A stretch of 5,847 nt of DNA, from IMG/VR virus record IMGVR_UViG_2700989164_000009. One strand, 5' to 3'. The position numbers and the translations under genes are program-made. Numbering within the stretch: the stretch's first letter is position 1; each line of letters opens with the position of its first letter. Source of the DNA: a virus (Duplodnaviria > Heunggongvirae > Uroviricota > Caudoviricetes). Under the pieces are notes generated by a model, which saw only the letters and a program-made list of their open reading frames with translations, was not told where the DNA came from and did not search any database. Below are positions 5,205 to 5,798 of the stretch, one piece after another.

Positions 5205-5228
5205 TTTAATTTCTCTATATGTTAAGCA

Positions 5229-5263
5229 AGCAATATTCATTGCTAGCATGTTTTTTGTATAAT
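5229..5263 (+). promoter_or_regulatory. Candidate promoter and operator for the HNH gene: -10 TATAAT (5258-5263) preceded by inverted repeat AGCAAT-attc-ATTGCT (5229-5244)
   Basis: Perfect TATAAT hexamer 29 nt upstream of the 5292 ATG; possible weak -35 overlapping the inverted repeat. Lies in the 87-bp divergent intergenic region between the tailspike start and the HNH gene. Confidence 0.3.
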
Positions 5264-5291
5264 GAGTGAACTTTATTTAAAGGTGGTTAAC

Positions 5292-5798
5292 ATGAACTGG
5301 AACGAAGTATTCGTATTAAAAGACGATGGACTCCTGTACTGGAGTGACCAATATCTCTCAAGACCCAAAATGTTCAATATCTCTAAAGAAAAGCCTGCAG
5401 GACATATATTCAAGGACAAGAACAGGAAAACATCTTATATAATTATCAGGTATCAAGATAAAATATACGCCGCTCATAGGATAATATGGGAAATGTTTTA
5501 TGGTGAAATCCCTTCAGGAATGCAAATTGACCATAAAGATGGTAATGGGTTAAATAATTCAATAGACAACCTGCGTCTAGTTAGTCTCGGTGAAAACCTA
5601 AAAAACAAATCTAAATACACAAACAATACATCTGGGTGCGCAGGTGTTTCATGGCATAAGACCCATAAAAAGTGGGTGGCATATATTAGCGACGCAGGGA
5701 AGCGCATTAATCTCGGATACTTTAAGAGTCTCGATGATGCAATTGCTGTAAGGCGTGAGGCTGAAAAGACCTATGGTTATCATAGACTGGCCCCCTGA
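5292..5798 (+). CDS. HNH endonuclease with C-terminal AP2-type DNA-binding domain (homing-endonuclease-like phage cargo gene)
   Basis: HNH_3-like motif 'IDHKDGNGLNNSIDNLRLVSLGENLKNK'; AP2-like segment 'GVSWHKTHKKWVAYISDAGKRINLGYFKSLDDAIAVRREAEKTYG'; NUMOD-like N-terminus. ATG at 5292 preferred over 5262 because AGGTGG (5281-5286) sits 5 nt upstream and a TATAAT (5258-5263) would overlap the 5262 ATG. Confidence 0.8.
   Translation: MNWNEVFVLKDDGLLYWSDQYLSRPKMFNISKEKPAGHIFKDKNRKTSYIIIRYQDKIYAAHRIIWEMFYGEIPSGMQIDHKDGNGLNNSIDNLRLVSLGENLKNKSKYTNNTSGCAGVSWHKTHKKWVAYISDAGKRINLGYFKSLDDAIAVRREAEKTYGYHRLAP

Follow-up and report, generated by a model that had tools for sequence, protein, structure and literature searches.

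A probable homing-endonuclease-type HNH-AP2 cassette at the translation start of the tailspike gene in P22-like prophages

The stretch analysed here (the window) is one whole draft-genome contig of 5847 bases and represents the right end of a P22-like prophage. Its gene order is that of P22 int-att-gtr-gene 9-immI in reverse, and the features are collected in Table 1. The integrase ORF (window 1-517) lacks its N-terminal part and matches Pfam positions 57-171 only. A second prophage locus in IMG/VR (L009) is 100% identical to window 1-5782 and is without the IS2 element that ends our contig. In L009 an IS3-family transposase ORF with rve domains (L009:349-735) ends at the position equivalent to window 26, and the window is thus bounded by IS copies at both ends. 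With the integrase truncated and an IS3-family element abutting it, the prophage cannot be excision-proficient. Next to the integrase remnant lies a 45-nt segment ending in CCA (window 532-576, minus strand), which we take to be the 3' part of a thrW-like tRNA-Thr; this part of the tRNA is the usual attachment core for P22-type integrases. ARAGORN found no complete tRNA in the window, and tRNA and Rfam scans of the same sequence gave no match.

The gtr genes lie between the attachment core and the tailspike gene. The third of them, the gtrC-like ORF (2156-3421, plus strand, 421 aa), has no Pfam match and a very low G+C content of 27-34%. Its counterpart in E. coli PapM-32-1 carries the annotation 'glucosyl transferase', and it is presumably a serotype-specific O-antigen glucosyltransferase. 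The true ATG of the tailspike gene is at 5204-5202 on the minus strand, as judged from the N-terminus conserved in relatives. The gene is broken into two ORFs of 399 and 200 aa by a run of eight C at 4069-4076 (G8 on the coding strand); the PapM-32-1 homolog has a G7 run at this place and is intact, with 570 aa. The same G8 run is found in L009, an independent twin locus. It may represent a genuine frameshift, a tract prone to slippage or a sequencing error shared by both. Read from its sequence, with a truncated integrase and a frameshifted tailspike, the prophage of the window is defective.

Table 1 Features of the 5847-base window
Feature	Position	Strand	Basis or remark
Integrase C-terminus	53-517	+	
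3' tRNA-like attachment core	between integrase C-terminus and gtrA		
gtrA, gtrB, gtrC-like gene	867-3421	+	
Tailspike gene, head-binding N-terminus and receptor-binding C-terminus	3488-5204	-	Pfam Head_binding, E=3e-63
Left boundary repeat TCTGTCATTTTAATTT, tailspike start codon and spacer	5197-5212	.	carriers aligned against empty sites
Divergent control region, 87 bp, including the unlikely ATG 5262	5205-5291	.	sequence
Tailspike SD-like AGAGAA	about 5211-5216	-	
TATAAT box	5258-5263	+	
HNH ORF	5262-5798	+	178 aa
HNH SD AAGGTGG	5280-5286	+	
Native HNH(HNN)-AP2 coding part, codons 1-164 of 169	5292-5782	+	WP_001104356.1, PHROG 99
HNH_3 nuclease motif (HRIIW...DHKDGNGLNNSIDNLRLVSLGEN)	5466-5597	+	Pfam PF13392
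AP2-type DNA-binding domain, three strands and one helix	5646-5774	+	Pfam below cut-off, AF2, Foldseek
IS2 left end, contig ends within	5783-5847	+	100% match to IS2 end in U82084.1

A first-pass annotation of this DNA had placed an HNH-AP2 endonuclease gene at 5205-5798, transcribed away from the tailspike. The ORF and its orientation are borne out: it has 178 aa and is divergent from the tailspike gene, which was recognised by its Head_binding domain. The span itself needs trimming at both ends, as 5205-5291 is intergenic or leader sequence, the start is likely at 5292 and the native end is at 5782. From this start the native part is identical across 164 aa (100%) to WP_001104356.1, a protein of 169 aa for which the RefSeq start corresponds to ATG 5292 of the window, preceded by AAGGTGG. 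The upstream ATG at 5262 shares two bases with the end of a perfect TATAAT box, the rest of which lies further upstream, and is for this reason unlikely to serve as a start. In a look-up of a public collection the 168-aa product from ATG 5292 was on record, and the 178-aa product from ATG 5262 was not. ATG 5292 is therefore the likely start of the HNH gene, judging from these sequence features.

At the other end, homology to every uninterrupted relative breaks off exactly at 5782. Since IS2 begins at 5783, the last four codons (RLAP) and the stop, at 5783-5798, are IS2-derived, and the conserved final five codons ENHGR have been swapped for RLAP-stop. The clipping of the 3' end by IS2 had been overlooked in the earlier reading. 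It is a real possibility, a little short of an even chance, that the gene in this genome is a dead relic, IS2 having taken the NHGR tail and any downstream signals within a prophage that is non-viable. The junction at 5782/5783 cuts into a C-terminus, YG[YF]H.NHGR, that is kept in all orthologs down to 64% identity, and the truncation of the integrase by the IS3-family element and the frameshift in the tailspike point the same way. Against this, 164 of the 169 residues are intact, including both domains and all catalytic residues, the AP2 helix ends ahead of the lost residues in the predicted model, and nothing has changed in the promoter region or the SD. At least four contigs of the public collection also share this clipped allele. 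Given the loss of five conserved codons and the defective prophage around it, the copy in the window may be impaired.

The HNH gene and the tailspike gene are separated by the divergent control region. In six out of six diverged ortholog lineages a perfect TATAAT is found 27-30 bp from the HNH ATG, in four of them in the extended form TGnTATAAT, and the -35 region is poor in all. A sigma-70 consensus scan of window 5000-5847 gave no promoter, and the sole terminator-like hairpin in the scan of this segment lies inside the tailspike ORF. The gene had been thought to have a promoter of its own; with the sigma-70 scan empty, what stands of this is the TATAAT box conserved at a fixed distance from the ATG. 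From this box a -35-independent promoter for the HNH gene is plausible.

The protein matched the HNH_3 profile (PF13392) with E=2.2e-20 and 72.4 bits, well above the curated cut-off of 24.8, confirming the HNH nuclease domain. The AP2 profile (PF00847) gave E=5.9e-5 but only 23.7 bits, under its cut-off of 33.3, and a precomputed PF00847 match exists for about a fifth of the homologs. No further Pfam domain was found in the ORF at E≤0.01, NUMOD4, which had also been suggested, being absent at this threshold. PHROG 99 'HNH endonuclease' was matched at E=2e-57, and an NCBIfam search of the protein returned no family. PADLOC matched only three generic 'HEase' models (best E=4.6e-11). A known anti-phage defence system, considered as a candidate, was rejected on this result, as the models are those of generic homing endonucleases and the gene is accordingly not filed as a defence system.

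A sequence search against solved structures returned I-HmuI (PDB id 1U3E, E=2e-5) as the only relative, and residues 113-141 showed a faint match to a Plasmodium AP2 domain. The DHKDGN..NN..NLR..EN motif aligns with that of I-HmuI. Residues D80-H81, N89 and N93 (169-aa numbering) are invariant in an alignment of 60 homologs, as is the histidine of the HRIIW-region motif, and N102 is nearly so (at least 90%). The AlphaFold model of the protein has a pLDDT of 93.5. When it was compared with the PDB by Foldseek, the top match was again I-HmuI 1U3E (probability 1.0), over 102 columns in the N-terminal part, and the model predicts the beta-beta-alpha metal fold in the nuclease domain. The AP2 part of the model consists of strands 129-132, 137-144 and 147-154 followed by a helix, 157-171. 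The C-terminal part superimposes on AtERF1 (1GCC) with an rmsd of 1.2 Å over 48 columns (TMt 0.65), and other AP2 matches were to WRINKLED1, TEM1 and ApiAP2 domains (7ET5, 7WQ5, 3IGM). The Foldseek E-values for these AP2 matches are weak, as expected with domains of 50 residues, and the matches are consistent with one another. The AP2 domain thus misses the profile threshold but is present as a fold in a confident model. Taken together, the model and the consistent fold matches indicate that the HNH-plus-AP2 architecture is real, and the two-domain make-up of free-standing phage homing endonucleases, as originally proposed, is supported by Pfam, PHROG and fold.

The gene had been read as occupying the place of the P22 immI region. 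This is not so. In L009 a Mnt-like gene (Arc and Repressor_Mnt domains) lies just past the HNH gene and is followed by ejection-protein genes. E. coli NRG857C has ant, arc and mnt downstream of the HNH gene, and in strain 23CRST042 the next gene is of the Arc family. The HNH gene is therefore wedged between immI and gene 9, and immI is unseen in the window only because the contig ends in IS2. Every ortholog (64-100% amino acid identity; from E. coli, Salmonella and Enterobacter prophages and from metagenomes) lies 82-90 bp from the start of a P22-type Head_binding tailspike gene and is divergent from it. The right neighbour varies and may be ant, arc/mnt or gp16, and the tailspikes at these loci are 570 to 800 aa long. 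The invariant partner of the HNH gene is the tailspike start.

To place the gene among its relatives we searched 5426 complete E. coli genomes, 235 of which have the same tailspike 5' end. The HNH gene is present in 15 of these 235, at 97-99% nucleotide identity. It is absent from HK620, from Sf6-type and from most related prophages, and the boundaries are sharp, as would be expected of the insertion that had been suggested. When 50,697 phage records were searched by megablast with this region, only the tailspike 5' end and IS2 had matches, and the HNH gene had none; no ortholog at 60% amino acid identity or more was found in any phage record. The best homologs in phage records, at about 47% amino acid identity, are HNH genes of T1-like and seszw-type phages, which have 3-4 copies per genome. 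Among 5.8 billion proteins searched, the orthologs had identities of 83% (Enterobacter), 75% (Salmonella) and 64-66%.

Alignment of carriers with empty sites defined the insertion precisely. In empty sites (HK620, two E. coli prophages and PapM-32-1) there is a single tailspike SD-spacer-ATG. Carriers have two copies of it with the cassette between them, and the junctions between filled and empty alleles are clean. The cassette, about 600 bp long, sits at the exact tailspike translation start and runs in the opposite direction to the tailspike. In the window it starts at 5213; the right copy of the repeat would fall past IS2 and outside the window. Of the two, the left copy is the one that works as the tailspike start, with an SD-like AGAGAA that lies on the cassette side. 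What stands on the right is a relic, comprising an SD (GGAGC), a spacer and an ATG with four further codons of an MTDIT/MSDIT-type tailspike, and the HNH stop codon falls within it. Relic starts were located at L009:6507-6535, L001:6648-6680, L002:6650-6680, L024:5508-5535 and L031:5421-5450. A simple 16-bp target-site duplication was rejected, because the right copy belongs to a more extended relic, which comprises another type of tailspike start and its SD.

Starting at the relic, carrier 23CRST042 has the same sequence as the empty PapM allele, and in NRG857C there is a match to the upstream region of HK620 type. We infer from these alignments that the cassette enters gene 9 at its first codons and brings a new start in place of the old one; the original insertion may have been joined through a GGTGA microhomology. 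The relic is still recognisable where the HNH genes have saturated synonymous sites. Repeated invasions may have renewed it, or it may have been kept for a role in binding or regulation.

Further evidence of mobility came from a comparison of E. coli carriers with the window, which covered 578 positions of the cassette and 345 of the adjoining tailspike. Carriers differ from the window at 2-12 of the 578 cassette positions (0.35-2.1%) against 23-36 of the 345 tailspike positions (6.7-10.4%), with the last tailspike difference 30-50 bp from the ATG. In their tailspike 5' regions carriers resemble one another no more than they resemble non-carriers, and that of one locus (L014) is 98% identical to HK620. 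Low divergence in the cassette beside high divergence in unclustered flanks implies that the cassette is younger than its flanks, and the step between the two indicates spread among tailspike alleles with short co-converted tracts. The G+C content of the cassette is 34-36%, against 40-50% for the tailspike.

The dN/dS ratio among orthologs is 0-0.23, two E. coli alleles differ at 12 positions, every one of them synonymous, and every ortholog is exactly 169 aa long; by these measures the HNH gene is under strong purifying selection. Decayed copies also exist. The HNH copies at L015:6001-6495 and in protein P0007 are frameshifted, and that at L007:6013-6339 is both 5'-truncated and frameshifted; with the IS2-clipped copy in the window, these are as expected from a cycle of invasion and decay. 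L007 (Escherichia whittamii) is a prophage stump near the tor locus, in which a C-terminal fragment of the tailspike is fused beside the 5'-deleted HNH gene.

The locus thus holds a nuclease gene of clear domain identity at a fixed site, patchily distributed, a young cassette in old flanks, under purifying selection and with decayed copies. We consider it probable that this is a free-standing cassette of the HNN-AP2 homing-endonuclease type, in which an I-HmuI-like His-Me finger nuclease is joined to an AP2 domain. Cleavage, target and homing can be predicted from the comparisons as follows. A weak promoter independent of a -35 element, lying within the 87-bp divergent spacer, would drive expression of the HNH protein. 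In relatives that lack the cassette, a long site located at the tailspike start or close to it would be bound by the AP2 domain and the N-terminal strands and nicked or cut by the HNH site. Repair from a cassette-bearing genome would then copy the cassette together with some 30-50 bp of adjoining tailspike. As the cassette would bring its own tailspike ribosome-binding site and start, the old start of the recipient would be left as the relic behind the nuclease gene. The idea that the protein may target tailspike-region alleles, put forward in the first-pass annotation, fits the comparative data.

Some observations count against homing. The relic start keeps most of the candidate target, which bears on the immunity of carriers to self-cutting, and among the isolated P22-like phages of the phage collection none has the gene. 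The lack of a consensus sigma-70 promoter also weighs on this side. In the deeper lineages the divergence of the HNH gene tracks that of the tailspike N-terminus, so that long vertical residence and ordinary recombination could account for a large part of the pattern. A gene of use to the phage or its host could likewise show strong purifying selection and a constant length of 169 aa.

Such usefulness would be the essence of a nuclease that has been domesticated or is of the moron type: made by the prophage, it would cut the DNA of incoming related phages and be kept for the benefit of prophage or host rather than for homing. Superinfection exclusion or competition between phages would be in keeping with the gene's own conserved -10 box and low G+C, with its place adjoining lysogenic-conversion genes, where morons sit, and with its strong selection and constant length. 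The gene is moreover found only in prophages, never in the isolated phages of the collection, and is intact even in the otherwise defective L009. We nevertheless regard this reading as unlikely: the PADLOC matches are to generic 'homing endonuclease' models only, the gene is rare in related prophages (15/235), frameshifted and truncated copies exist, and the low diversity of the cassette between diverse flanks suggests that the cassette itself has been spreading. The moron-type role is compatible with homing and does not exclude it.

A DNA-binding protein of AP2 type that has lost its nuclease function and regulates the tailspike or immI would suit the AP2 domain and a place among the control sequences that separate immI from gene 9, but is very improbable and was rejected on conserved catalytic residues and context, as the catalytic D-H, N and N are invariant and under purifying selection and the tailspike is expressed without the gene in most related phages. 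Least probable of all is a packaging-associated HNH protein resembling the terminase helper HK97 gp74, which has only membership of the HNH superfamily in its favour and was rejected on context, since the gene adjoins the tailspike far from terminase, with tailspike and immI or gp16 as neighbours at all loci, P22-like phages package by headful, the protein is of a different HNH family (HNH_3/HNN with AP2), and the gene is absent from most relatives. Proteins of the gp74 type are encoded beside the terminase genes of cos phages.

Among characterised enzymes the closest parallel to the probable homing-type nuclease is I-HmuI of Bacillus phage SPO1 (1U3E), a nickase. Both are HNN-type His-Me finger proteins with N-terminal DNA-contacting strands. 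I-HmuI, however, is intron-encoded and ends in helices and a helix-turn-helix, whereas the protein described here has an AP2 domain, and identity between the two is about 24%. Free-standing HNN-AP2 endonucleases have been described in phages T1, Rtp, T5, RB16/RB43 and Xp10/OP1/Xop411 (PMC2248197, citing Magnani et al. 2004). Our gene resembles them in being two-domain, free-standing, patchy and prone to degeneration, its closest homologs in phage records (about 47% amino acid identity) belong to this class, and the occurrence of several copies per genome is a known habit of the class. Those of T1, T5 and others occupy varied sites in virulent phages, with no conserved flanks; the present lineage, in contrast, is single-copy, belongs to temperate P22-like prophages and keeps to one site at the tailspike start.

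The Seg and Mob nucleases of T4 move by 'intronless homing', which has been demonstrated for MobE (PMC2790892) and SegB (PMC2330249). They too are encoded by intergenic cassettes between conserved genes and spread by gene conversion with co-conversion of flanking markers, a process that we infer for the present cassette. They belong to other enzyme families or have a different domain make-up, and their homing is experimentally grounded, while for the HNH gene here it is a reading of comparative data. No doubling of the tailspike start on the two sides of the cassette has been described for the T4 systems. Nuclease genes are known to sit at boundaries of genetic exchange (PMC10055350), and the HNH cassette likewise lies at a boundary of mosaic exchange. 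Within the same phage group, gene 31 of epsilon34 is an HNH gene that resembles endonucleases of Gram-positive phages (PMC2629481), and SEN22 has an HNH insertion between its terminase and portal genes (PMC5261728). Both are sporadic HNH-type mobile genes at other genomic sites. Our literature searches found no paper describing this HNH gene at the tailspike-start site, nor any biochemical work on the enzyme. The HNN-AP2 class is thus already known, and it is the site-specific lineage at the tailspike start for which these searches gave no description.

Taken by itself, the HNH gene is a routine gain in annotation, and its analysis corrects a tempting but wrong reading of synteny in which it replaces immI. 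The wider value is modest and comes from a lineage tied to one precise site, the translation start of the receptor-binding tailspike. In P22-like phages this site is recognised as a hot spot of mosaic exchange. More speculatively, and in our view improbably, the nuclease may be an active driver of host-range evolution that breaks DNA at the seam between immI and the head-binding part of the tailspike. If so, the breaks would promote exchange of whole tailspike and O-antigen-conversion modules between P22-like phages, the spare translation start would keep the tailspike functional after each invasion, and the relic start would either record repeated invasions or have been kept as a recognition site. 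Empty and filled alleles both exist in culturable systems, such as HK620 and E. coli prophages like that of NRG857C. The locus therefore offers a convenient natural case for asking whether free-standing nucleases shape the exchange of tailspike and host-range modules, and how an invading cassette preserves the expression of an essential gene.
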